Source of the DNA: Candidatus Hermodarchaeota archaeon
Lineage (GTDB): Archaea; Asgardarchaeota; Hermodarchaeia; Hermodarchaeales; Hermodarchaeaceae
DNA: 64,000 nucleotides
Direction: 5' to 3'
Assembly (NCBI GenBank): GCA_016840065.1
Contig: JAEOTB010000037.1
Coordinates: 32,001-96,000, forward strand
Part shown: one piece after another, positions 1 to 52,279 of the stretch
Layout of the letters: every line of letters starts with the position of its first letter
Numbering within the stretch: position 1 is the first letter of the stretch
Notes under the pieces: generated by a model
The model's input: the letters and a program-made list of their open reading frames with translations, nothing else
Database searches by the model: none
What the model was told of the DNA's origin: nothing
Translations under genes and position numbers: made by a program

Positions 1-1421
1 AGACCATACCCTAATACATAGAAGTGCGGAAATCGGTCTAGATAAGGTGCGAGACTGCGAGCATTCACAGTTGTTGTGGCGATAGTCTGTTCCAGAAGAG
101 TAGGTAGCTTGGTTTGGAGTTCATCAAGAAGCACATTACCCTTATCTTTTGCGAGTGTACCCTGCCGCATTCCAATCCTTGTAGCGAGGAATGCGAAGAG
201 GGTAACTTGGCTTGTGTATGTCTTGGTGGCAGGGACACTAATCTCAAAGCCGCAGCCTAAGGGGAGATAGATATCACTAAGATGTGTTAGTGTTGATCCC
301 AAGACATTGATTATGCTAAGGATTCGTGCTTTGCGCGCTTTACAATGATGTACCACGTCGACTATGTCTTTGGTTTCTCCACTCTGACTTACACATACAA
401 CAACATCTCCCTCACCAACAGTATTTCCAAATTGGGAGATGAACTGACCTCCAACAACTGGAATCGCAGGTATGCCAGCTAAATCGTTGAAATAGTAACT
501 TCCTACTGATGTGGCATGAAAGCTAGAACCACACCCTACAAAGAATACACGCTTGGCATCAATAAGTGCATTCTCGAAATTCGTGATATAAGGTTCACGA
601 ACCGCGTTAAAAAGACTTCGAACACTACTCACCTGCTCATGAATTTCTTTAAGCATAAAATGAGGATAGCCGCCCTTCTGGGCTACTCGAATATCTGCAT
701 CTGAAACATAGGGTTTCCGTTCCACAACAGAGTTGTCGCTAATCTTTCGGATTTCGATGCTTTCAGGGCTTAGGATCAATAATTCACCGTCGTGGACGTT
801 AAGGATGTTGCGAGTGACTGGTAAAATACTAGGGAGATCACTACTTACACACGTTTCCCCCTCACCAATGCCCGCAAAAAGGCTTGAACCCATTTTTACC
901 GCATAGACTTTGTCATCATCCTTGTGCATAATAGCGAAGGCGTAATCCCCTCGCAAGTCACTACAACCCTTTCGAATCGCCTCGACCATATCACCGATTT
1001 TATCATAATACCGTTCAACAGCATGCACACATATTTCGCCATCATTCATGCTCCGGATGTTATGTCCCTCATCAGTATACTGCTCACGCAGTGGTAGGTA
1101 ATTTACAATGTTACCGTTATGTGCACCTGCTAAATCTTTATCACAATCGAAGTGAGGTTGAGCATTGATTTTACTTGGTGCACCAAAGGTGGCCCAACGC
1201 AGTTGGGCGATTCCTTTGTGACCAGGCATCTCTGCAAGACGTAACTTCTCTGCAACCTCCTCGATTCTTCCCTTATCTTTTCTTAGTAGAATTCTACTTT
1301 TGTGGACTGTTGCAATACCAACTGTGTCATACCCCCGATATGTGAGCTTTTCAGCCCCTTCAACTAGAATCTGACCAATATCTTTACGTCGATTAGAGGT
1401 AATAGCAAAGATTCCGCACAA
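1..1421 (-). CDS. glmS: Glutamine--fructose-6-phosphate aminotransferase (partial, runs off the window start)
   Basis: Translated by hand from TTG at 1421 down to about nt 180 without a stop: MCGIFAI, YRGYD, RWAT, AHNGNI, KGGYPHFMLKEIHEQ, GCGSS, VSQSGET, EISVPATKTYTSQ. Absent from the ORF track, presumably because no stop falls inside the window. Confidence 0.92.
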   Translation of the reverse strand, partial: MCGIFAITSNRRKDIGQILVEGAEKLTYRGYDTVGIATVHKSRILLRKDKGRIEEVAEKLRLAEMPGHKGIAQLRWATFGAPSKINAQPHFDCDKDLAGAHNGNIVNYLPLREQYTDEGHNIRSMNDGEICVHAVERYYDKIGDMVEAIRKGCSDLRGDYAFAIMHKDDDKVYAVKMGSSLFAGIGEGETCVSSDLPSILPVTRNILNVHDGELLILSPESIEIRKISDNSVVERKPYVSDADIRVAQKGGYPHFMLKEIHEQVSSVRSLFNAVREPYITNFENALIDAKRVFFVGCGSSFHATSVGSYYFNDLAGIPAIPVVGGQFISQFGNTVGEGDVVVCVSQSGETKDIVDVVHHCKARKARILSIINVLGSTLTHLSDIYLPLGCGFEISVPATKTYTSQVTLFAFLATRIGMRQGTLAKDKGNVLLDELQTKLPTLLEQTIATTTVNARSLAPYLDRFPHFYVLGYG

Positions 1422-7340: not shown

Positions 7341-8383
7341 ATGAGTGAACCTCCATCAACCCCAACTCCCCCTCCTCCAGCAGAACCTGCACCCCCTCCA
7401 GTAGAATCATCTGGAATGACAATAGCCGAAGTCCGTAGCCACGCTACACGAATACTCGACGAAGTAAACAAACTAGTAGTCGGGAAGCGCCACTTACTTC
7501 AGAATATACTGATTGGTCTGCTCAGCGGCGGGCACATCCTGCTAGAGGGCGTTTAAGGAACGCTCGGCAAAAAGGTGTTCCCGGTATTGCCAAGACGTAT
7601 GCAGCTAATACATTCGCGCAAGCTGTTGGTTGTTTGTTCAAACGAGTCCAATTCACTCCAGACCTCTTACCTGTTGACGTGACTGGGCATTCAATCTTTA
7701 ATCCTAGCTCCGGTGAGTTTTCTCTCCGAAAAGGTCCAGTCTTTACAAACGTTCTCTTAGCTGACGAGATTAACCGCTCCCCGCCAAAAACCCAATCGTC
7801 TCTACTTGAAGCTATGCAGGAAAAGCAAGTTACTATCGAGGGAACGACACTCCCCCTGCCCCACCCATTTATGGTTCTAGCGACACAAAATCCAATCGAA
7901 CTTGAGGGGACCTATCCTCTTCCCGAAGCGCAAGTTGACCGTTTTCTCTTCAAACTTCACGTCGATTATCCTTCTGAAACAGAGGAGGTAGAAATTCTTC
8001 GTCGGAGACATATCGGAGTAGGAAGTCGGGTAGACGCTGTAGTAAACCCGAACATCATTTTACGGATGCAGAGTACAATAAGAGAAGTGTTTGTCGAACC
8101 GCACATTTTGAACTACATAAGAGACATAGTCGTGCGGACTCGGAATGACCCTCAAATCCTCATCGGCGGCTCCCCACGTGCCTCAATTGTTCTCTTAGAA
8201 ACCTCGAAAGCCCACGCCGCGTTACAAGGCAGAGACTTTGTAACACCAGACGACATAAAGATGCTAGTACGCCATACCTTGAACCATCGCTTAATTCTGA
8301 AACCTGAAGCAGAACTTGAGGGCGCTTCGGTCCACTCTGTAATCGATCGCATACTCCGTCAGATTGGAGTACCGGGAGCATAG
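7341..8383 (+). CDS. moxR: MoxR-family AAA+ ATPase, spliced: exon1 7341-7545, exon2 7572-8383 (338 aa)
   Basis: Removing a 26-nt BHB intron joins ORFs 7341..7556 and 7634..8383, giving [14 protein letters not shown] (Walker A), [18 protein letters not shown] (Walker B), [22 protein letters not shown]. Confidence 0.92.
7546..7571 (+). other. 26-nt BHB intron in moxR mRNA
   Basis: Central helix UGCU/GGCA, bulges AG^A and AA^A, intron hairpin GGGCGUU-UAAGG-AACGCUC, exon stem GGGCACAUC/GGUGUUCCC; splicing gives CTA G|AA GGT GTT CCC = LEGVP. Confidence 0.9.
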
Positions 8384-20846: not shown

Positions 20847-22295
20847 ATGAAGGAGAAACTGAAACAACTAGACGAGTTTCGCTACTGGCTCGACAAGACA
20901 GCCCGCCCCAAGATGAGAGTAGGCGCGATGTTATTTGCTTCACGCAAAGTTATACAACAAATAGAAGATAGCGCGGTTGAACAATTAACCAACGTCGCCT
21001 GTCTACCAGGTGTTATTGAGCCAGTTTTAGCCATGCCAGACGCACATTGGGGATATGGCTTACCAATGGGCGCAGTCGGGGCCTTTGACGCTGAGGAGGG
21101 CGTGATATCAGCTGGGATGACCGGTTTTGATATCAACTGCGGTGTCCGGTTAATTCGTACTAATCTAACTCAGGCTGAAGTTAAGCCCAAACTTCGTCAG
21201 CTCATGGAGGAATTGTTCAGGCGCGTGCCTGCTGGCGTCGGCTCTAGAGGTAAGATTCGCTTGAGCAATTCCGAGTTGGATGGTGTTTTACAGCTTGGTG
21301 CTCGATGGGCAGTCGAGAGTGGTCGCGGAGTTGACGCGGATTTAGAGCACTGTGAGGAAAGGGGCAATATGGAGGGTGCCGCAACCGGCTTGCCAGAGCT
21401 TTCAGAGCGGGTACGAACGCGTGGAAAACCTCAGCTGGGCACACTCGGTGCCGGTAATCACTACCTTGAAGCCCAAGTAGTTGATGAGGTGTTTAATGAA
21501 GAGGCAGCCTCCCGTTTTGGTTTAGAAAAGGGGAAAGTGGTTGTGATGTTACATTGTGGATCTCGCGGTTTCGGTCACCAAGTGGCAACTGATTACCTGA
21601 AGAGTATGGAGGTGGCTGCGCGGAAGTATAAAATTTGGTTGCCAGACAGACAACTCGTCTGCGCTCCAACCACATCGCCAGAGGGGCAAGCCTACTATTC
21701 CGCGATGAAGTCAGCCGTGAACTACGCCTTCTGCAACCGGCAAGTAATGACTCACTGGATTCGGGAAGGCTTTGAAACTGTCTTTGGGCGAGACTGGGAA
21801 AAACTAGGTCTTCACCTAGTTTATGATGTTTGCCATAATATATGCAAGCTAGAAACCCACGAGTTACACGGTGCAAAAAGGCAACTCTACATTCATCGAA
21901 AAGGTGCTACTCGTGCTTTTGGACCCGGCAACCCGCTTATCCCCCCTCACTACCAACCCGTTGGACAGCCAGTACTGATTGGTGGCTCTATGGGCACAGC
22001 CTCTTATGTACTAGTTGGTACAGAGCAGGCAATGAAAGAATCGTACGGTTCTACATGCCATGGTGCTGGACGCGCTATGGGTCGAAAAGCAGCCACAAGG
22101 AGATTTCATGGTAGGGAGATTCAACGTTCGCTTGAGCAATCAGGTAAAGTGATAAAATCTCATAGCGCCAAGCTACTCGCTGAAGAAGCGCCCAAGGCTT
22201 ACAAGGATGTCCACATGGTGATTGACGCAGTCCACGGAGCAGGAATTTCTCTGAAAGTCACGCGCCAGATTCCAATGGGCACTGTCAAAGGCTGA
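20847..22295 (+). CDS. rtcB: RNA-splicing ligase RtcB
   Basis: MPDAHWGYGLPMG, GFDINCGVR, LGTLGAGNHYLE, HCGSRGFGHQ, HRKGATRA, STCHGAGR, EEAPKAYKDV. Confidence 0.97.
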   Translation: MKEKLKQLDEFRYWLDKTARPKMRVGAMLFASRKVIQQIEDSAVEQLTNVACLPGVIEPVLAMPDAHWGYGLPMGAVGAFDAEEGVISAGMTGFDINCGVRLIRTNLTQAEVKPKLRQLMEELFRRVPAGVGSRGKIRLSNSELDGVLQLGARWAVESGRGVDADLEHCEERGNMEGAATGLPELSERVRTRGKPQLGTLGAGNHYLEAQVVDEVFNEEAASRFGLEKGKVVVMLHCGSRGFGHQVATDYLKSMEVAARKYKIWLPDRQLVCAPTTSPEGQAYYSAMKSAVNYAFCNRQVMTHWIREGFETVFGRDWEKLGLHLVYDVCHNICKLETHELHGAKRQLYIHRKGATRAFGPGNPLIPPHYQPVGQPVLIGGSMGTASYVLVGTEQAMKESYGSTCHGAGRAMGRKAATRRFHGREIQRSLEQSGKVIKSHSAKLLAEEAPKAYKDVHMVIDAVHGAGISLKVTRQIPMGTVKG

Positions 22296-41891: not shown

Positions 41892-42200
41892 CTATTTTAT
41901 TGAAATTTCTATGAAGACTTCTTCAGGAACACGGATTCGCATTATCTGACGCATGGTTCTTTCATCCGCTTCCAAGTCGATAAGGCGTTTGTGAATGCGC
42001 AGCTGCCAGCGATCCCAGGTTGGAGTTCCCTCCCCACAAGGTGATTTTCGGGTCTGCACCTTCATGATTTTAGTTGGTAAGGGAATAGGACCAGACATGT
42101 GAACCCCAGTACGGCTGACAATGGCCTTCACTTGCTTACAAACGTCATTTAGCTTGCTAATATCCACACTTGACAGCCGAATACGCGCCTTTTGTACCAT
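41892..42200 (-). CDS. rps10: 30S ribosomal protein S10
   Basis: [33 protein letters not shown]. Confidence 0.97.
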
Positions 42201-42258
42201 CTTTATCAACACTTAGCTAACATTTCGCGTGATGACTTGCCATCGATAAAAAGGCTTC

Positions 42259-42367: not shown

Positions 42368-43723
42368 CTACTTCTTTACTGTTATCTTCTGTACTACTCC
42401 AACAGCCACTGTGCGACCACTATCACGAATCGCAAACCGACCCAGCTGCTTCATATCGGCAAACCGCTCTAACACAATTGGCTGCACTGGACTGAACTTG
42501 ACGATAGCTGATTCACCTTGTTTGATGAAGTCTGGCTTCTCCTCCACCGTCTCGCCAGTACGAGGATCAATCTTGCTGATAAGCTCAGTGAAAGTCGTTG
42601 CCATCTGGAGTGTGTGAGCGTGCATAACTGGTGTGTACCCAGCGGCTATGGCTCGTGGGTGATGGATTACGATTATTTGTCCAACGAAATCTGTGATAAC
42701 CTTGGGTGGGTCGCTGACATGACCCATGACATCACCACGTTGAACCTCGCCTTTTCCAATGCCACGAACATTGAAACCGATGTTGTCGCCCGGCTCAGCC
42801 TTCTGCATTTTCTCATGGTGCATCTCGATTGACTTGACTTCGCCCGTATGCCCAGAGGGCATGAAGATTACTTTATCGCCAACTTTCAAAACACCAGTTT
42901 CAACTCTACCAACGGGAACAGAGCCTACGCCAGTAATGGTGTAGCAGTCCTGGATTGGTACTCGCAATGGTGCTTTGAGTGGTTTCTCTGGCTGTACGAA
43001 CTTGTCAAGAGCCTGGAGCAAGGTGGGACCTTTATACCAGGGCATGTTCTCACTAGCCTTATCCAGCCCATCTCCTGTCCAACCGCTGGTTGGGATGAAA
43101 TCGACTTTGCTTGGATCGAATTGAGCACCCTGGAGCACTGAAGTGACTTCTGCCTTGATTTCCTCGTAGCGTTCTTGGCTCCAAGGAGGCGTAGAGTCGT
43201 CCATCTTGTTCACAGCAACAGCGACCTGCTCGATACCAAGGGTTCGGGCAAGGAATGCGTGCTCACGGGTCTGCCCGCCCGCACTGATTCCAGCTTCAAA
43301 CTCACCCTTACGTGATGAAACGACAAGAATCGCCGCATCAGCCTGGCTGGCACCCGTAATCATGTGCAAGAATTAAGGAGCGTACCCCTCAATTATTCTT
43401 GATGAAGTCCGCGTGCCCAGGAGCGTCAATCAGCGTGAAGTAGTGTTTTTGTGTCTCGAATTTTCGAAAAGCTAGATCGATTGTTAGCCCACGTTCTCGC
43501 TCTTCCTTCAAGCGATCCATTACTTACCCCTTCATATCGTGTGATATGAAGTGTAGGCGAACTTGAACGAGGCGTCTTTCGTTTCTGATGCTAGCTTTTC
43601 TAATTTGAGCATTTCTTGTTTCGTTAGCGCACCCGTGACATATACGAGGTGGCCCATTAGCGTTGATTTACCATGATCAACGTGACCAATGATGATCAAG
43701 TTGATGTGTGGTTTAGTAGCCAT
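42368..43723 (-). CDS. tuf: Elongation factor 1-alpha, spliced from three exons: 43723-43553, 43523-43396, 43364-42368 (431 aa)
   Basis: Spliced product reads [15 protein letters not shown]|[37 protein letters not shown]|[13 protein letters not shown]; the middle exon is missing from the ORF track; 171+128+997 = 1296 nt. Confidence 0.95.
43365..43395 (-). other. 31-nt BHB intron 2 of tuf mRNA
   Basis: Exon stem UCAU/AUGA, central helix CAAG/CUUG, bulges AA^U and CA^C, intron hairpin AAUUGAGGGG-UACG-CUCCUUAAUU; splicing gives AAG AA|C ATG = K N M. Confidence 0.93.
43524..43552 (-). other. 29-nt BHB intron 1 of tuf mRNA
   Basis: Central helix GCCU/GGGU, bulges AC^A and AA^G, perfect 9-bp hairpin CUUCAUAUC-ACAC-GAUAUGAAG; splicing gives GCC TAC|GTA ATG GAT = A Y V M D. 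Confidence 0.92.
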
Positions 43724-43888: not shown

Positions 43889-46800
43889 TCAAAGTGGTAG
43901 GAGGGCTTGGAAGGGGGATAACATAGGTGCTACTGTGGCTACTAGCACGCCAAGTATTTGTCCAAGAAGATTACGGACGATTTGACCCACTACTTGATTG
44001 AGAAGAACCTTAACCACTCCAGCAAGAGTGAGATTACAAACCATCTTCCCCACAGGGAGTAGAACGCTATACCAGAGCCAAACCACACTATCACGAACAA
44101 TTGGTGATAACACACTAAGTATCCATGTAGCTATGAGATGAGCAAAATCTGCTAGCGTAAAGAAAGGAAAGCCCAACGCTTGCAGACTTGCCCCGAAGCC
44201 GGTGATAACTAAGCTTAGTAACCCCGTCGCCGATAAACTCGTAGCAGTAATACCCAAACTAAACACTGACCCGCTGATGTATTGGAGAACTATAGCGAAA
44301 ATACTGAATACAACGCCAATAAGCCAACCATATTGTGTAAGTGTAGCGAGGAAGGTGTTGATAGTGAATGTTAAGAATATGAAAAGCGCTGTACCGATTG
44401 CGCTGAGAATCAATGGGAGCAAGCTGCTGAATAAACTAGTAAGACCACTCCCAGTTGAAGCCGAAGAAGTGGAGGCTAAACCCCCACCAAGAGCCCGACT
44501 AGTTAAACTAACAACGGCAAAATTCTGTATCAAAACGAGAAGCGGCGCTAATGAAGTGTATCGAGCATCCATTGTATTAATGCCAAGACTTGTGAGGATA
44601 CTCTGAATGGCAGTAGTGATAGTGATTGCTACTAGAAGGGCCTTCCAGCGGCTGGGATTAAGTAACTGCCGAACACGCTGTTTGATTGTGAAAAACAGGT
44701 TCTTTGCATAATCCTTCAGCCTGTCTGTTAGCTGGTCGCGAGCGCGACCTGTAAGCATCTGTATGTAACTAGTTTCAAGAATAATTTGGGAAGGAAACTT
44801 TTGGCGCACAAACCGATCGAAAACATAGAATCTGCTGTAATATCCCCCTTTGTAGGTGTTTCCCCCACGAGAGCCGTATTGCCAGCTATTCCCTAATGTT
44901 CTATCTAGATTCTCGAAGATTGCGGGCCATCCACCAGGGTTTCCCCATCGACCTGTTTGATCTTTACCATTGTAGATGAAGGAAAGTTTTCCCCATTCCT
45001 TGTATGTAGACCATATTTTCTCATCAATGGATAGACTTCTCACGGTTTTTCCTCTATCAATTTCCTGATCAGATTGTAGAGGAACAGGGCAGATACGACC
45101 CACCCCAAGTACTGCACAGAAATAGATGAGGGTGTTCAAATCATCCCGAGTTACATCATCTAATCCATAACGCCATGTTCGATCACGAGCAGAATTCTTT
45201 CTTGCCGTCCAAAACGACCACGTTAATCTATAGAGTTTATTCTCTCCAAATCCACGAGTTGTACGACGGAGCCCGTAATACTGATTCAATAGTCCTACAT
45301 GTCGGTATTTGACATGAGTGGGCTCCAGTTGCATCGTCACCCCAACTGGTCCAGCAGGCGTGTTAACCAATTGAGTACCAGTTAAAGCCAGAGTTGTCAG
45401 GCCCATTAGCGGGTCAATATGCCCTTCACGACACTCGAATTCTACGAGCCGAAGCCCACCTAACTGTGGTTCGTCTGGTTTGGGTGGCATTTCATCATTC
45501 TGTTGAGGTTTCAGAATGAACAAGTTCCATTTAGTTTTCATTACCACATCAAGACGTTGTTTCATCGAAAGTAGTACGCCTTGAATGAATGGATTTAGTT
45601 CTTGAAGTGTCGGAGGGGCTGCGATGAATAATTGATTCTGATATTTCCTCTTTACCTCTTTGACGGCTTCGGTCTGGAAAAGAGGACCTTCGTCACAAAG
45701 AATACCTCTAGGAACCCCAGCAATGCAGCTGTAAAATTCAGCAAAGAGTAGGTATTGTCCTCTAATAGTTTTAGTCGAGAAGCCCTCAATATCTCCTGGA
45801 TAATGTGTGTGTATCTGGGCATTGTTTGGATTTAGTAAATCCCAAAGACACCAGAAACTCTTTCTCTTTGCTGAAACTCCAGTAAATCCAGTTCGAGTGG
45901 GAATAAGAAATGTGGGTAGTTCAATCCACCTATTACTCCATGTAGGCGCTTGGCTTGGTTTGTATCGAGCAGTAATCGTGGGATTAAGTGGAAGAATGAG
46001 AATAGCACCTTGCTGATTCTTGATATGGTTGATAAGGCTAGTATCTTGCTGGGCTAGTTCTGCAGTATCAATGTTTGAACGGTCTGGTTTGAGTATGAGA
46101 GCATTCTTGATATGGGCGACAACTGCATCTGAGTGGACTGGAAGACCATGATTCCTTCGGGCTTCTTGGAAATCAGCGTTGTCACTTATTCGATATATCA
46201 CTTGGAAAGTGGAGTAGGTTTTCCCTTTGTGATGTGTGTAGGTAATGAAGTTGTCCCGGACAATTCCAAGGTTTTCTTCTTCAAAATAAACACGTTTTGT
46301 ACCTTGCCCTGGAGGCGCTAACGCCATACGCTCTTCGTAAACCGCTGATGCTTGCTGCCAGTAAAGCCCCTTCGCATACCTTCCATCTCCTATGCCCGCC
46401 CAATGCCGAAAGATAAGAACTTCTGTTGTTAACTTAAGTGAGCCAATCACAGGAATAGGTGTGCTATTCAGAATCTCCTTTTCCAACCCCCTAACCTGCG
46501 AGTCAATCATCACACCCTCCTCAACAAGTGTAGCCATTGCTGGTAAAATTTCTTGGATTTGGGGAATAAGGATACCAATCTCCTTAACCGTAGTCCAGTC
46601 TAATCCCTTCATCTTGTCCAGTGTTTTCCTGATAGTTCCTTGAATTTGTTCTTTCATTATGCCTATACGGCCACACTTCAACGCTTGATCCAAGATATTG
46701 ACATACGGGAAAGTCTCTAGTGTTGTTGGGTAAATGGCTTCAGCACCATAGTCGGGAGTTGTGAAAGTACCTGAAGCTCCAGGTGGGGGAGGTGAGGTCT

Positions 46801-49800
46801 CATCCTCACCAAAAAGGAAAGCTTGCAGAAAAAACCCAATTACTGGCAACTCTAACAGCTTGCTTATCAGAAATTCAAGAGGTACGAATATGATGTTAGT
46901 TAGTGCATTTCGAACCGCTGTAATGATGCCGAATATTGCCTGTAATAGCACCATTCCTAATGTCATAAGTATCGTCTTCCCAATTTCTATTAAAACGCTC
47001 AAACACTGTGTAATGAAATCCCACGCAGGTCCTAGAATTGCCTTGGGGTCGAAAAAGCTCAATTGCCCGTCTGTCACCTTCTTGATAGCATACTGGGTAG
47101 CTAACTCGCCTACAACCTCTGGTAGACTCAAGGGTTTCCCTGAATGCCTGTTCAGAGCCTCCGCTACCCCCTTAATCACATACATAGGCTCTTCAATATA
47201 ACCAGCCTCAAAAAGCAGAATAGCCTGCACACTTCTGTCATATACGACTTGCCAGCCGAATCTGTCTTCTAACCCTGCATTCAGTTTCAACAGTCGCAGT
47301 AACCCGGTCAGCTTGTAAGATGCTTCTTCCAGATTTCGTATCTTAGCATAGTGAATTAGTTCATCAAAGAGACGCTGAGCCTCCAGCCCCACCTGATTCC
47401 ACGTCTCTGAACCCGCATCCTTGTACATCGACTCCGCAGTAGATAAGAGGGAATCGCGAGCTTCTTGGATGCGTTCCTGCAAAGCAACCTCGTCCCTCAG
47501 CCTCGCAAGCTTTGCCAAGGTTTCCGCTACTTTTACCTCCACTTGTTTCTGATGGATTACGGCCAGTATCGTGTTCTCTAGGTACTTGTCTAGAGACTCA
47601 TAGCCTAAATCCCATCCCCGCACCACCACCTCTCCATAAAAGAGGAAGGTGGGCACAAACCAGCCCATACTCAAAGACCCCTCAAAGACCTGAGTGGGAG
47701 CAAGATAGGGCTTGACACGGGACCAGTCCGCCTCCCCTACCTGATACTCTGGTGTGGTTGCAAAGGGACTCGCCTCGACTGATAGCAGCTGCGTTGACTG
47801 GAGGGCAGACTGCAAGAACTCGTCTTCCACCAGTGGATTTGAGTCAAAACACCATCGCTGGAGGTCACCCTCACCCAAATAGTACAGATCATCGCCTAAC
47901 TGTTGTTGAAGGGCTTGAAGCCGTAACATCTCTGCCAGCGATAGACGAGCCGCATCTACGGTGTGTTTTGTCGGGTCAACAGCGGTACGATAGCCCACTA
48001 AGAGGAAGCTACCTAATACTGTAGTGAGGGGTTCTACTTGGAAGGTTGATAGGTTCAAGGCTTGGAAGAATTGTAGGAGGTCTTGGGCATAGGCATCCAA
48101 GTTGGTTTGAGCGTGGTGGTGTAATTGCTCATGGAAGGTCAGAAAAGAAATATCTCCAGGGAGGCTAGCTCCAAGCCCTGCGAACATAAAAAGCAGAAGT
48201 TTGGGATCAACAAACGCAAGACCAGCTAGGCAGATAACAATCCAGGGTCCATTCATTAGGATGTAACTACCAATCAGTTGCTTATCGTCAAGAGAAGCAA
48301 AGACATTGAGAATTGTGGTCTTGGCCTCGGCTTCTCCTGCCTGTAGGAGTGAAGTTCCCACAAACTCAGCCCGTAGGGTCACCACACCCACAAGACTTTG
48401 GGACACCAGCCAATCTAGTGTAGCCTCTCCTTCGGCGTTGGTGTAGGCTTCGCCAAGAAGTGATGTGCCGTTTATCCCCTCAAGGAAGAAGCGGATAAGC
48501 TGATGTGCCACTGGCTGTCCAGTGCTAGTGGTTACGATTGCAGTTATTTGGGTTGTCTGTTGAGTTGTAAGATCCGCTGGAACCGACAATGTAAGTTGGG
48601 TTGTCGCCACCACACAGAACTCTATTATCTCACTGCTTGCACCAGCCGGACTCTTTGCGATGACAGTCGCCGTGTAGCTGTGCATCCCCTGTAAGGGACC
48701 GATGATACCCGATGTCATCCACACACTACCATAACAGGAGAGAGCAAAGCTTTCTGGTACACTGTTGCCATCGGTGTCAAGCTGGACGGTGAGTGTGAGG
48801 AGGTCGTCAGGGTATGTGGCGTTCAGAGTGACCTGTACACTCAAGGTGTCTGTATCACAAATTGTCGCATTACCATAGAGGGTAGATAGCTTTGCAGTCA
48901 AGATGGTGGGCGGATGGTTGCAGAGGGTGACACTCTGCTCTGCTTGGCAAGTTCGTAATGCCAAGTCATATCCAATGAGGGTGAGGATGTGGTCACCATC
49001 TGGTAACGTGCTAGTATCGAGGGTAAGGGTGTGGCTACCTGATGAGTGGAGGCGGAATAGCACTACCTCGCCATCTAATAGTAAGATTGCTTCTCTCATG
49101 TTCGCATCGGCGAGAAAGAGGGTGATTTCTACAATGCCTGTGAGGATGGTTCCTGCGGTGGGGGTGTCAATGCGAACCACTGGGTTCTCCAAGTCCACAG
49201 TGAAGGCTTCGGTGTATTCTGCGACATTACCCGCAATGTCAGTGGCTTTGATGAGAACTGTGTGTGGAGCCGCTGTAACTGCTATTGTAAAGGTGGTCTC
49301 GTTGGTGTTCTCTGCAACACCAGAGAATATGCCATCGATGAAGAGTTCGATTGTCTCGCAATGCCTGTCTGTTACAAAGACCACCACGTCAAGCGTGGTG
49401 TTTTCGGTGAACCCTGCCTCCGTTACTGGCAGAAAGACCTCCAAGATGGGTGCTGTGCTATCTATGAGAAAAGTGACACTCCGAGCAAGAGCATTTCCTG
49501 CGCGGTCCATTGCCTGAACCAGTATTGTGTGGGAACCATCAGTGAGATTGGTTAAGGTATATTGGCGGTAACTACCATCGAGTTCAACAGCTAGGGTTCC
49601 ATCGAGGTAAACAGTAAAGGTTGCAATCCCTGCGGTGGTGTCGCTGGCACTCCACTGAATACGCGGATTTACACTAGAAGTGTGAGAGTCTTCCAAGGGG
49701 GCTGTGATGGCTAGAGTCGGGGAAGTTGCGTCTGTGGTAAAGATGTTTGAGGTGCTTTGGTGATTGCCAGCCAAATCAATGGCTTCAACGGTCAAAGTGT

Positions 49801-52279
49801 GTATGCTCTCGGTCAAGTTGGAAAGCAGGAACATCGTGTCTACGGTGTTCGCCAATAAAACGCCGTCAAGGTAGACCTGATAATAGGCAATTCCCGTATT
49901 GTCAGTTCCCTCCCAAATAGCTGACAAACCAGTAGCGCTATAGTACTCACCCTCCAATGGTGATGCTATTACGACATCGGGTAATGTGTTATCTACAACC
50001 ACAATAAGGCTGTGAGTGGCTATCCAACCTACACCATCGGAGGCTATAGCAGCCAGGGTGTGGTTACCATCACACCACTCTTGAGTATCCCAAGGAAACA
50101 GAAAGGGAGGACAGGTCGTTGTGTTGTAGAGGAGAACACCATCAACGGACAGGACAACCCACAACACACCAGAGGGATTGATACCAAAATCATCTGCTGA
50201 TACCTCCACGACAACGGTTTGGCTGAGAATTGTTCCCTCAGAGAGAAAATCCACCGTTACAATGGGTGGTGTGGCGTCAACATGAAGCGTTCGTAACAAG
50301 CTAGCCCAGTTCCCCACCCTATCTACTGCTGTGGTATTCACGGTGTATGTTCCTTCTATTGTGGGTACTGTCCATTCTTGGGTTTGTGAGCCTGTATCAG
50401 TTGTTGAGATCCTGTGATGGTAGTTATTGGGACCTGTGATGGTCAGGTTGGAAGCCGCCAACCCTGCTGGGGGATTGCCCTCATCGGTCTGCTGCCACAC
50501 AAGACTACACAGTTTTCCCGCAGCAACATGAGCAGCATTGGCTGGGGCAGAGAAGGAAAGGAGGGGTGTCGTGCAATCAATCAGATAGATACCGTGAATT
50601 GTTGTTGCACCCACTTCACCAGTTTGGGGGTTTACCGCAAATGCCATCACATCGTACCAGCCCTCCAATACACCAGCAACAACCTCTGTCAAGTAGCCAT
50701 CACCACTCCCATTTACAGGAAGATAGAGATTACCACTTGGTTGTTCATAGACTTGGGTGCCATCACAGATAATTCGATATTTTGCAAAGGTGGGACCTGC
50801 TGCATAGGAGACAGTCACATTGAACTGATCGCCCACAGCCGCATAGGTTTGAGTCGAATCTGCTGTGACACTCCACCCCCCATGTGTTGCCAACCTGTTA
50901 ACCGAGTTTGCGGAAAAAGTCCAAACACCTTCTGCAGGATTATTCACGAATATACTATACGACGCTTCACTGAGCGAAACAGAGCCTGATGGGTTGTTGG
51001 GGCTAGATTGGTAATTACTCCAGCCACAGGGGAGGCTGAGCGAGAAGCTCCCCGGTTGCCACTGGGCACCCGTAACTTGACTACTAAAGGAAATGCCCCA
51101 ATCAGCAAATGAAGCACCACTGATAACGGAAAAGGTGGTGTCGGCGGTACGCTCCCAGCTAGCCTCCATTGATTCGTGGTGATTGAACACCGTCACAGGC
51201 CAATCCGAGGCACCGCTGTCTGAGCGAGTGAAATAATATGAAGTACCAGTACCACTGGCGCAAGTATCTAAAACACTCACATGACCCTTTCCCCAGTCCA
51301 CTCCATTTGACACCGCATACTGCTTGGTGGGATCCGCTTCACTTCTAAGAGCTAGGTCCAGGTCACTGGATCGAAGCTTGTGGAGAGCCCACAGGTTAGC
51401 ATAGTCAAACCGCACCGCACTCCAATGACTACTGAACAGGGTTGAAGCAGTGGTCACCCAGACATTTAGACGAAGCTCAATGGTTGCCGCATGATCCGGT
51501 AGGGCGCTGTCAAAATGCAGGTTAACCTCATCGGTTACCCAGGTGTCCAGCGGCGAAGCCAAATCCATATCATAGGGGGTGGCTGCTAGTACGCTATCGA
51601 CGTAGATTTGGGCGCATATTCGCACCCAGTTTTTGTAGCGAAAGCCAAGGGTTAGTTGGGTGCGGTGGAGGGGGAAGAGTCCGCGTGTGTCGCTGAACCA
51701 GCCCGGCGGCACCAAGAAGCTTTGGCTGAAGTAGCCCTGACAGGTACCCTGGTAGATAATCCAGCCGATGAGGAGGGGTGATTCGATTTCTCCGTAGGAT
51801 ATTCCTTCTTCACTGGCAAAGGAGATTTGGGCGATTCCATCGGTGTGGTTGGTCCAAGGAGTGCCGTGGTCGAAGTGGTAGTCGCTGAGCCATTCGCTGC
51901 GCTGCCCCCATAAATCGCCCACATAGGAGGTGAAGAAATAGTCGAAGTAGGTTCCCTCCGTGGGCGGATCCACTTGGGGACCTATCACTTCCAGCGACGA
52001 GGCTTCGGTCATGTAGCGGTTTGTGGTGGGTGTTGTACAACCTGCTGTAATAGTGCCAGAAAGGGGTGCAGAAGACCCTGAGAAAATATCCACTCCACTT
52101 GTTGGAGGTATCAGTTGTTGTGGGTTTGGATTGGCGATTGGTAGAGTTTGCTGATGGTGAGAAGCTGACTCCCTTAGAGGAGGAGAGTCTGTAGTGAGGT
52201 GGGGGGATTGGGGGAAGGCGCTGATGCTGCCTAGAAAGAGAAGGAGGAGCACGCAGGCGATGGAACCATTCACCTTCAT
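43889..52279 (-). CDS. Giant (2796 aa) secreted/membrane protein with Ig-like repeats, unknown central domain and multi-TM C-terminus
   Basis: Signal peptide; repeated D-x-T-x-P...G.HTL...A.D.AGN Ig-like units; hydrophobic segments near 48200, 46900 and 44640-43900. Confidence 0.8.
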   Translation of the reverse strand: MKVNGSIACVLLLLFLGSISAFPQSPHLTTDSPPLRESASHHQQTLPIANPNPQQLIPPTSGVDIFSGSSAPLSGTITAGCTTPTTNRYMTEASSLEVIGPQVDPPTEGTYFDYFFTSYVGDLWGQRSEWLSDYHFDHGTPWTNHTDGIAQISFASEEGISYGEIESPLLIGWIIYQGTCQGYFSQSFLVPPGWFSDTRGLFPLHRTQLTLGFRYKNWVRICAQIYVDSVLAATPYDMDLASPLDTWVTDEVNLHFDSALPDHAATIELRLNVWVTTASTLFSSHWSAVRFDYANLWALHKLRSSDLDLALRSEADPTKQYAVSNGVDWGKGHVSVLDTCASGTGTSYYFTRSDSGASDWPVTVFNHHESMEASWERTADTTFSVISGASFADWGISFSSQVTGAQWQPGSFSLSLPCGWSNYQSSPNNPSGSVSLSEASYSIFVNNPAEGVWTFSANSVNRLATHGGWSVTADSTQTYAAVGDQFNVTVSYAAGPTFAKYRIICDGTQVYEQPSGNLYLPVNGSGDGYLTEVVAGVLEGWYDVMAFAVNPQTGEVGATTIHGIYLIDCTTPLLSFSAPANAAHVAAGKLCSLVWQQTDEGNPPAGLAASNLTITGPNNYHHRISTTDTGSQTQEWTVPTIEGTYTVNTTAVDRVGNWASLLRTLHVDATPPIVTVDFLSEGTILSQTVVVEVSADDFGINPSGVLWVVLSVDGVLLYNTTTCPPFLFPWDTQEWCDGNHTLAAIASDGVGWIATHSLIVVVDNTLPDVVIASPLEGEYYSATGLSAIWEGTDNTGIAYYQVYLDGVLLANTVDTMFLLSNLTESIHTLTVEAIDLAGNHQSTSNIFTTDATSPTLAITAPLEDSHTSSVNPRIQWSASDTTAGIATFTVYLDGTLAVELDGSYRQYTLTNLTDGSHTILVQAMDRAGNALARSVTFLIDSTAPILEVFLPVTEAGFTENTTLDVVVFVTDRHCETIELFIDGIFSGVAENTNETTFTIAVTAAPHTVLIKATDIAGNVAEYTEAFTVDLENPVVRIDTPTAGTILTGIVEITLFLADANMREAILLLDGEVVLFRLHSSGSHTLTLDTSTLPDGDHILTLIGYDLALRTCQAEQSVTLCNHPPTILTAKLSTLYGNATICDTDTLSVQVTLNATYPDDLLTLTVQLDTDGNSVPESFALSCYGSVWMTSGIIGPLQGMHSYTATVIAKSPAGASSEIIEFCVVATTQLTLSVPADLTTQQTTQITAIVTTSTGQPVAHQLIRFFLEGINGTSLLGEAYTNAEGEATLDWLVSQSLVGVVTLRAEFVGTSLLQAGEAEAKTTILNVFASLDDKQLIGSYILMNGPWIVICLAGLAFVDPKLLLFMFAGLGASLPGDISFLTFHEQLHHHAQTNLDAYAQDLLQFFQALNLSTFQVEPLTTVLGSFLLVGYRTAVDPTKHTVDAARLSLAEMLRLQALQQQLGDDLYYLGEGDLQRWCFDSNPLVEDEFLQSALQSTQLLSVEASPFATTPEYQVGEADWSRVKPYLAPTQVFEGSLSMGWFVPTFLFYGEVVVRGWDLGYESLDKYLENTILAVIHQKQVEVKVAETLAKLARLRDEVALQERIQEARDSLLSTAESMYKDAGSETWNQVGLEAQRLFDELIHYAKIRNLEEASYKLTGLLRLLKLNAGLEDRFGWQVVYDRSVQAILLFEAGYIEEPMYVIKGVAEALNRHSGKPLSLPEVVGELATQYAIKKVTDGQLSFFDPKAILGPAWDFITQCLSVLIEIGKTILMTLGMVLLQAIFGIITAVRNALTNIIFVPLEFLISKLLELPVIGFFLQAFLFGEDETSPPPPGASGTFTTPDYGAEAIYPTTLETFPYVNILDQALKCGRIGIMKEQIQGTIRKTLDKMKGLDWTTVKEIGILIPQIQEILPAMATLVEEGVMIDSQVRGLEKEILNSTPIPVIGSLKLTTEVLIFRHWAGIGDGRYAKGLYWQQASAVYEERMALAPPGQGTKRVYFEEENLGIVRDNFITYTHHKGKTYSTFQVIYRISDNADFQEARRNHGLPVHSDAVVAHIKNALILKPDRSNIDTAELAQQDTSLINHIKNQQGAILILPLNPTITARYKPSQAPTWSNRWIELPTFLIPTRTGFTGVSAKRKSFWCLWDLLNPNNAQIHTHYPGDIEGFSTKTIRGQYLLFAEFYSCIAGVPRGILCDEGPLFQTEAVKEVKRKYQNQLFIAAPPTLQELNPFIQGVLLSMKQRLDVVMKTKWNLFILKPQQNDEMPPKPDEPQLGGLRLVEFECREGHIDPLMGLTTLALTGTQLVNTPAGPVGVTMQLEPTHVKYRHVGLLNQYYGLRRTTRGFGENKLYRLTWSFWTARKNSARDRTWRYGLDDVTRDDLNTLIYFCAVLGVGRICPVPLQSDQEIDRGKTVRSLSIDEKIWSTYKEWGKLSFIYNGKDQTGRWGNPGGWPAIFENLDRTLGNSWQYGSRGGNTYKGGYYSRFYVFDRFVRQKFPSQIILETSYIQMLTGRARDQLTDRLKDYAKNLFFTIKQRVRQLLNPSRWKALLVAITITTAIQSILTSLGINTMDARYTSLAPLLVLIQNFAVVSLTSRALGGGLASTSSASTGSGLTSLFSSLLPLILSAIGTALFIFLTFTINTFLATLTQYGWLIGVVFSIFAIVLQYISGSVFSLGITATSLSATGLLSLVITGFGASLQALGFPFFTLADFAHLIATWILSVLSPIVRDSVVWLWYSVLLPVGKMVCNLTLAGVVKVLLNQVVGQIVRNLLGQILGVLVATVAPMLSPFQALLPL

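Follow-up and report, generated by a model that had tools for sequence, protein, structure and literature searches.

A tRNA-type (BHB) intron probably interrupts the EF-1alpha pre-mRNA of a Hermodarchaeota archaeon

The tuf gene for translation factor EF-1alpha of a Candidatus Hermodarchaeota archaeon (GCA_016840065.1; G000 below) carries a 31-nt insert that we are confident, from its sequence, is a BHB intron spliced from tuf pre-mRNA. The insert (tuf intron 2; 43365..43395, minus strand) lies in a window of 64,000 nucleotides, the whole stretch analysed here (contig JAEOTB010000037.1, positions 32,001 to 96,000), to which coordinates refer unless another contig or locus is named. Removal as a BHB intron is the best explanation because the junction indicated by homology is also a BHB cut, the sole EF-1alpha gene found shows no decay, and the genome encodes the enzymes. 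Intron 2 would thus be a recently gained intron of the tRNA type. A second insert of the same kind interrupts the gene further upstream; given two intron-like inserts, tuf mRNA very probably has to be spliced.

The gene spans 43723-42368 on the minus strand and its frame is broken at two places. It consists of exon 1 (43553..43723; codons 1-57, including the P-loop), intron 1 (43524..43552; 29 nt, a relaxed BHB between Tyr57 and Val58, homologous to a family-wide dnaG intron), exon 2 (43396..43523; 128 nt, switch I and the G3 motif), intron 2 and exon 3 (42368..43364), all on the minus strand. The rpsJ (uS10) gene lies directly downstream (41892..42212, minus strand), as is usual for the tuf-S10 locus. 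Directly upstream, at 43889-52279 (minus strand), is a 2796-aa open reading frame with a signal-peptide-like start, repeated beta-rich segments of Ig-like appearance, a charged middle and a hydrophobic C-terminus. When both inserts were removed at their BHB cut sites, tuf read as 431 codons with one terminal stop. The spliced 431-aa protein aligned without gaps to two uninterrupted genes of the same genus (91-92% identity), and its G1-G5 motifs were all present. EF-1alpha from a same-genus sister scored 646.6 bits against TIGR00483 (cut-off 540.1), and its nearest named relatives were Hermodarchaeota MAGs (88-90% identity). Exon 3 matches a 331-aa NCBI protein that groups with the sister EF-1alpha proteins and is apparently this tuf, annotated in truncated form with the Met that follows intron 2 as its start; searches for exact matches to the 63-aa and 331-aa pieces of tuf found none in another assembly. 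Comparison of spliced tuf with its orthologue in sister genome G003 revealed 180 synonymous and 34 non-synonymous codon differences, compared with 164 and 37 between two intact sisters. On these counts the tuf exons are under purifying selection and the gene is not decaying. A single EF-1alpha gene was found in G000 (83.9% complete, 5.1% contaminated), and the relatives carry one tuf each.

Intron 2, of canonical hBHBh' form, splits the Asn100 codon just 3' of the G3 motif (switch II). The preliminary description had read it as a textbook BHB with a capped hairpin, and its sequence, coordinates and reading were exact on re-check. Lying between the halves of a conserved codon, the insert gives the missing strand of a 4-bp helix together with a hairpin, and excision after the second base of each bulge restores EF-1alpha exactly. 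The exon-stem strands lie at 43405-43402 and 43363-43360, the central helix is formed by the exon strand 43398..43401 with the intron strand 43370-43367, and bulges of 3 nt each in the canonical conformer occupy 43397-43395 and 43366-43364 (all minus strand). The central helix and the exon stem, both of 4 bp and said to be perfect, contain only Watson-Crick pairs. The hairpin (43371..43394, minus strand) has a 10-bp stem (43394-43385 with 43380-43371) and a 4-nt loop (43384-43381), and includes the in-frame TGA that is read if the intron is retained. Both statements made about the frame also held: the cut falls within the Asn100 codon, and the unspliced frame reads Asn-Asn-stop. The stem likewise has its 10 bp, two of them G-U, and the loop described as UNCG-type is UACG closed by G-C. 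An extra-stable cUNCGg hairpin needs a C-G closing pair, and loop sequence varies freely among the other introns found. Self-splicing introns of group I or II were considered and rejected, as these need a ribozyme core of well over 100 nt and intron 2 has 31 nt and one hairpin.

Folding supported most of this structure, with the central helix (pair probability 0.98) and the exon stem (0.82-0.94) both fixed. In the folding model the exact BHB conformer lies at -13.3 kcal/mol, 1.0 above the minimum, and represents approximately 5% of the ensemble; the cleavable conformer is a minority because a repeated AAU allows the 5' bulge to slide among four registers. Homology alone also permits four registers for the junction (start 43396-43393), among them the BHB cut. 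A 52-nt window around the intron folded with z = -3.8 (0/200 shuffles as good), and a 61-nt window with z = -1.66 only. Sites of intron 2 quality (Watson-Crick helix, stem of at least 10, exon stem of at least 4) numbered two in the real 2.59-Mb genome versus 0, 1, 0, 0 and 0 in five Markov-simulated genomes (0.2 per genome). A strict genome-wide BHB scan at a stem of at least 8 was not discriminating (16 sites versus 10-14 in simulated genomes), and it missed tuf intron 1 and the dnaG intron. The exon stem can pair in 71/71 intron-less EF-1alpha loci (some genomes counted twice). Since it is dictated by the codons of F-[IV]...M-[IV], it is a landing pad that pre-exists and gives no indication of adaptation. 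Little support for the intron reading therefore comes from the UNCG loop or the exon stem; as read from the sequence, the insert's own contribution is the helix strand, the bulge spacing and the 10-bp stem.

BHB geometry was also found by a motif-free census, in which G000 was compared with approximately 2.2 Mb of the family member G004 for inserts of 12-90 nt at conserved sites, a pass being a 4/4 helix and a stem of at least 4 bp. Five of seven frame-breaking inserts had this geometry, compared with 0/65 in-frame inserts (P = 1.5e-6). The five were located in a MoxR AAA+ gene (7546..7571, plus strand; a 26-nt BHB absent from the G004 orthologue), in tuf (twice) and in two copies of the acetyl-CoA synthetase gene acs (31 nt each; G000:C105:254-284 and C113:13561-13591, minus strand; copies 87% identical in DNA). 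Two frame-breaking inserts did not pass: one is a C-terminal repeat, and the other, of 34 nt and with a 3/4 helix, interrupts a BioF/Kbl-family gene where its PLP-lysine motif begins (G000:C104:14835-14868, minus strand). The reverse census, of inserts in G004, gave 3/3 frame-breaking versus 0/87 in-frame inserts with BHB geometry. These three, all absent in G000, interrupt cbf5 (L133:12651-12691, plus strand; 41 nt, after the Asp of the LDKP motif), a gene for a Roadblock/LC7-like protein (weak Pfam match; L206:11117-11145, minus strand; 29 nt) and a CoA transferase subunit gene (L221:15791-15825, plus strand; 35 nt). Judged by position, the cbf5 insert is an independent gain at a site other than that of the crenarchaeal cbf5 intron (catalytic Asp). 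A further 31-nt insert emerged when the search was guided by the motif; it follows codon 11 in the gene for a 534-aa protein without a Pfam family (G000:C85:7196-7226, minus strand). The dnaG intron was detected by a similarity match, and other introns common to G000 and G004 may be missed by the census. With it, G000 has at least eight coding-region BHB introns, a lower bound. The acs intron is present in three genomes of the genus (G000 and the sisters G003:C133 and G001:C334) with paired stem changes; in the G001 copy it is 30 nt long, with the junction seemingly shifted by one base.

These results weigh on the possibility that two insertions killed this copy of tuf and that an unassembled intact gene does the work. 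One gene with two frame-breaking lesions is what such a history would leave, and a second, intact tuf could sit in the missing 16% of the genome. Yet the purifying selection on the exons equals that on intact sisters, the GTPase motifs are all intact, the gene occupies the canonical tuf-S10 locus, relatives have a single tuf, and both lesions show a BHB geometry that none of the 65 in-frame indels has. We consider a pseudogene very unlikely.

The distribution of intron 2 was determined by aligning tuf from close relatives, a check proposed in the preliminary description. The site was without the insert in 14/18 other genomes of the family; in the remaining four, tuf was unassembled or ended by a contig end. 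Intron 2 was found in no relative examined and is known from one metagenome assembly. By parsimony, since the insert is absent in the relatives that show the site, it was gained on the branch to the present genome. A pattern search of metagenomes for an insert at this site returned at least 120 matches of near-uniform length, which were taken as intact EF-1alpha genes, and a phylum-wide junction pattern was abandoned as an insert detector that is too loose (chance matches in 399/400 genomes). Separately, five family assemblies (L013-L018; G006, G008, G015, G016 and G017) break inside tuf near residues 119-135, probably owing to conserved sequence in common to co-occurring strains; a segregating insert may also be the cause. 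A search for a donor of intron 2 in G000 and in approximately 2.2 Mb of G004 found none, nor did a search by end patterns through 19 genomes of the family and 41 related ones, and the hairpin sequence had no match elsewhere in the genome. At G017:C28:31892-31928 (plus strand) the first 14 bases equal the 5' junction of intron 2 and the same helix strand recurs at the end, with a weak hairpin between; from this resemblance the stretch is possibly a relative or donor of intron 2, or a chance match.

An insert present in one assembly only could be an assembly or library artefact, namely a fold-back chimera in the contig, and a 7-nt inverted repeat does connect the exon end with the 3' part of the insert. 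The hairpin sequence, on the other hand, is no copy of nearby exon and matches nothing else in the genome, and the same geometry recurs in eight genes, among which dnaG and acs are interrupted in independent assemblies by introns of different sequence. An artefact is thus highly improbable, and we return to intron 2 as a BHB intron.

The other tuf insert, intron 1, provides evidence at the sequence level of intron copying between mRNAs. The dnaG intron (G000:C10:107682-107712, plus strand, outside the window; L127:528-501, minus strand) is a BHB after Gly-Leu codons that occurs in 18/19 family genomes with a length of 28-31 nt. Compensatory changes, read by eye, were seen at stem positions 4 (G016) and 7 (G002, G003), and three pair types occur at position 6. 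Intron 1 of tuf matched 24/26 bases of a G004 site that proved to be the dnaG BHB intron, and it shares 27/29 nt with the dnaG introns of G011, G012 and G018. Scored against the G004 dnaG copy it reached 22, compared with a mean of -5.7 (sd 4.6) for 231 intron pairs. Both introns are preceded by the exon hexamer GCCTAC, which is already present in the intron-less tuf of the same genus and missing from the other genus. The dnaG intron is likely the donor and tuf intron 1 the copy, because the former is widespread and the latter was found in a single genome. The dnaG intron of G000 itself resembles intron 1 less closely (score 17), which would mean a change after copying or a donor in a related species. 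The copy may have been made via RNA or via DNA.

We also examined EF-1alpha in 28 other Asgard genomes, which were picked for weak EF-1alpha scores among the matches listed, so that the count is not an estimate of frequency. In 16 of the 28 genomes, 18 frame-breaking inserts of 29-43 nt were identified, all with a 4/4 helix. Together with the two tuf introns they occupy 12 EF-1alpha positions in the genomes sampled; the P-loop holds four of them and the G3/switch II motif another four within 17 nt. Three of these inserts lie within 17 nt of the intron 2 site, none at the exact base. One P-loop site is common to nine genomes of another Asgard family; its helix does not vary, and in six stem pairs both partners have changed. 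Paired cells made up 86.5% at this intron compared with 27-46% in slid controls, a figure to be read with the structure derived from the same sequences and the genomes as kin that are not independent. The preliminary description had ranked intron 2 as the strongest single case. It is the best-shaped BHB among the coding inserts found, but it is not the best evidenced, because it was found in no relative, whereas conservation with compensatory changes is seen for the dnaG, acs and P-loop EF-1alpha introns.

Other irregular EF-1alpha genes were encountered in Asgard genomes. In three families the presence of two weak EF-1alpha matches suggested a split gene; in the five genomes checked, the genes proved intact and divergent (445-514 aa). 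Families f17-f19 (L375-L386) have a long divergent EF-1alpha (472-514 aa) with in-frame insertions and a second paralogue at approximately 38% identity, adjacent in three genomes. No convincing BHB was identified at G133:C32 (L387), where one TGA lies inside the match, or at G289:C135 (L409), where a 31-nt call is uncertain. In G318, two BHB inserts in one EF-1alpha gene (L412:1087-1117 and 1254-1283, plus strand) have a 7-nt loop sequence in common. With a mutual score of 8 (background -5.7, sd 4.6), this pair is a possible second case of copying.

The genome encodes two EndA subunits, at C85:17046 and C10:100418, and an RtcB RNA ligase, all above Pfam cut-offs; the RtcB gene is intact and lies within the window (20847..22295, plus strand; 482 aa). 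EndA alpha (185 aa) had as its best solved matches 3p1z/3ajv (E = 6e-45), which we take to be Aeropyrum pernix EndA. The catalytic Tyr, His and Lys positions are retained in this subunit, and the alignment places an N-terminal insert at the CSL/L1 loop; the second subunit (201 aa) is without the catalytic His. Heterotetramer-type EndA with an L1 loop occurs in Asgard, and the loop has been tied to relaxed substrates (PMC5829648), which fits the weaker, relaxed BHB of intron 1. ARAGORN called introns in 16/28 tRNA predictions of the genome, some calls being doubtful.

By analogy with archaeal tRNA splicing, an (alpha-beta)2 EndA would cut the nascent tuf mRNA after the second base of each 3-nt bulge. 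RtcB would ligate the exons, either ahead of the ribosome or in a race with it, and the ribosome would then read Lys-Asn-Met. Archaeal translation is coupled to transcription, so that a ribosome reaching the intron before it is removed would terminate there after two codons, and the unspliced mRNA would yield a truncated GTPase. On this reading, BHB introns are gained in separate lineages and persist wherever the BHB can form; they cluster in invariant motifs, where an imprecise loss would presumably be lethal. Intron 2 itself, which the relatives do without, we read as a tolerated, constitutively spliced insertion and not a regulatory switch.

The insert could also be real and skipped in translation, by bypassing as in T4 gene 60 or by frameshifting. 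A stop codon in a hairpin just after the take-off site resembles known bypass signals, and intron 2 has its stop in such a place. Bypassing requires matched take-off and landing codons, which here are Lys or Asn versus His before Met, and a frameshift would lengthen the invariant switch II helix by approximately ten residues and run into a TAA in the landing frame. Both leave unexplained the conserved helices at the exact spacing of an EndA cut, and we regard them as most unlikely. The idea of three separately translated pieces (63, approximately 44 and 331 aa) that assemble into EF-1alpha has an ATG a few bases from the start of exons 2 and 3, each with purine-rich sequence upstream, in its favour, and can be practically dismissed, as the breaks separate P-loop, switch I and switch II within the G domain, residues would be lost or added where splicing restores every residue exactly, and all 12 different break sites in Asgard EF-1alpha have BHB geometry.

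For splicing of tuf mRNA at a BHB there is a precedent in the cbf5 pre-mRNA intron of Desulfurococcales and Sulfolobales (Watanabe 2002; Yokobori 2009, PMC2738675). It was the only earlier mRNA case, to which a Haloferax 5' UTR site was added (PMC7714728); introns in genes other than cbf5 had been predicted, unconfirmed (PMC2738675). In the literature outside subscription journals, splicing inside an archaeal coding sequence is confirmed for one gene, cbf5, and we found there no report of coding-region BHB introns in Asgard, where intron work covers tRNAs. The cbf5 intron resembles tuf intron 2 in being short and protein-free, in its BHB-type junction and in splitting a codon of a conserved motif (that of the catalytic Asp); it too needs a heterotetramer-type EndA and leaves a gene that looks to annotators like a frameshifted pseudogene. 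The two would work alike and are not orthologous elements, the host here being EF-1alpha, an essential translation factor with two introns in an Asgard lineage. At least eight coding introns occur per genome instead of one, most are lineage-specific, and their splicing is inferred from sequence.

Archaeal tRNA introns with hBHBh' are abundant in Asgard (PMC11291895; bioRxiv 10.64898/2026.10.13.758758). They are similar to the tuf introns in motif, size range, enzymes and repeated recent gains on terminal branches, and differ in that the host is a tRNA and not an mRNA. Almost no copying was seen between Asgard tRNA introns in a study of tRNA only, which names the arrival route as the central open problem (bioRxiv 10.64898/2026.10.13.758758); here, in contrast, a donor-recipient pair of mRNA introns is visible. 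Transposition of tRNA introns has been described in Thermoproteales (Fujishima 2010, as reviewed in PMC4090602). To the extent that the review describes them, those introns, like the dnaG and tuf pair, are near-identical sequences at unrelated sites able to form the same BHB, and moved between tRNA genes; the present case concerns two protein genes, dnaG and tuf, and intron 1 only. The recognition of tuf intron 1 as a near copy of the dnaG intron is new here. Among eukaryotes, XBP1/HAC1 mRNA carries a small, frame-shifting, non-spliceosomal intron that an endonuclease cuts out, with RtcB joining the exons in animals. There, IRE1 cuts at two stem-loops and the system is regulated and conserved, whereas tuf intron 2 would be cut by EndA at a BHB and is recent and unshared.

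A broader reading is that a class of mRNA introns is spreading in Asgard archaea. These would be BHB hairpins of 26-43 nt, copied between protein genes sharing a helix strand (as from dnaG to tuf), which build up in the invariant motifs of essential genes and are excised by EndA and RtcB; we judge this about evenly balanced between right and wrong. If true, two BHB introns in an essential, highly expressed translation factor and at least eight per genome would make mRNA splicing routine in Asgard, and would tie translation capacity to EndA/RtcB. It would also mean that markers such as EF-1alpha, dnaG and cbf5, together with a Roadblock-like protein, are entered in truncated form in Asgard annotations, as the 331-aa NCBI protein appears to be, with consequences for phylogenomics and gene inventories. 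The copy from dnaG to tuf gives a concrete donor and recipient for the arrival of BHB introns, an open question of a 2026 preprint (bioRxiv 10.64898/2026.10.13.758758). Taken together, and if the reading holds, the closest prokaryotic relatives of eukaryotes would have general non-spliceosomal mRNA splicing with an observable route of intron gain.
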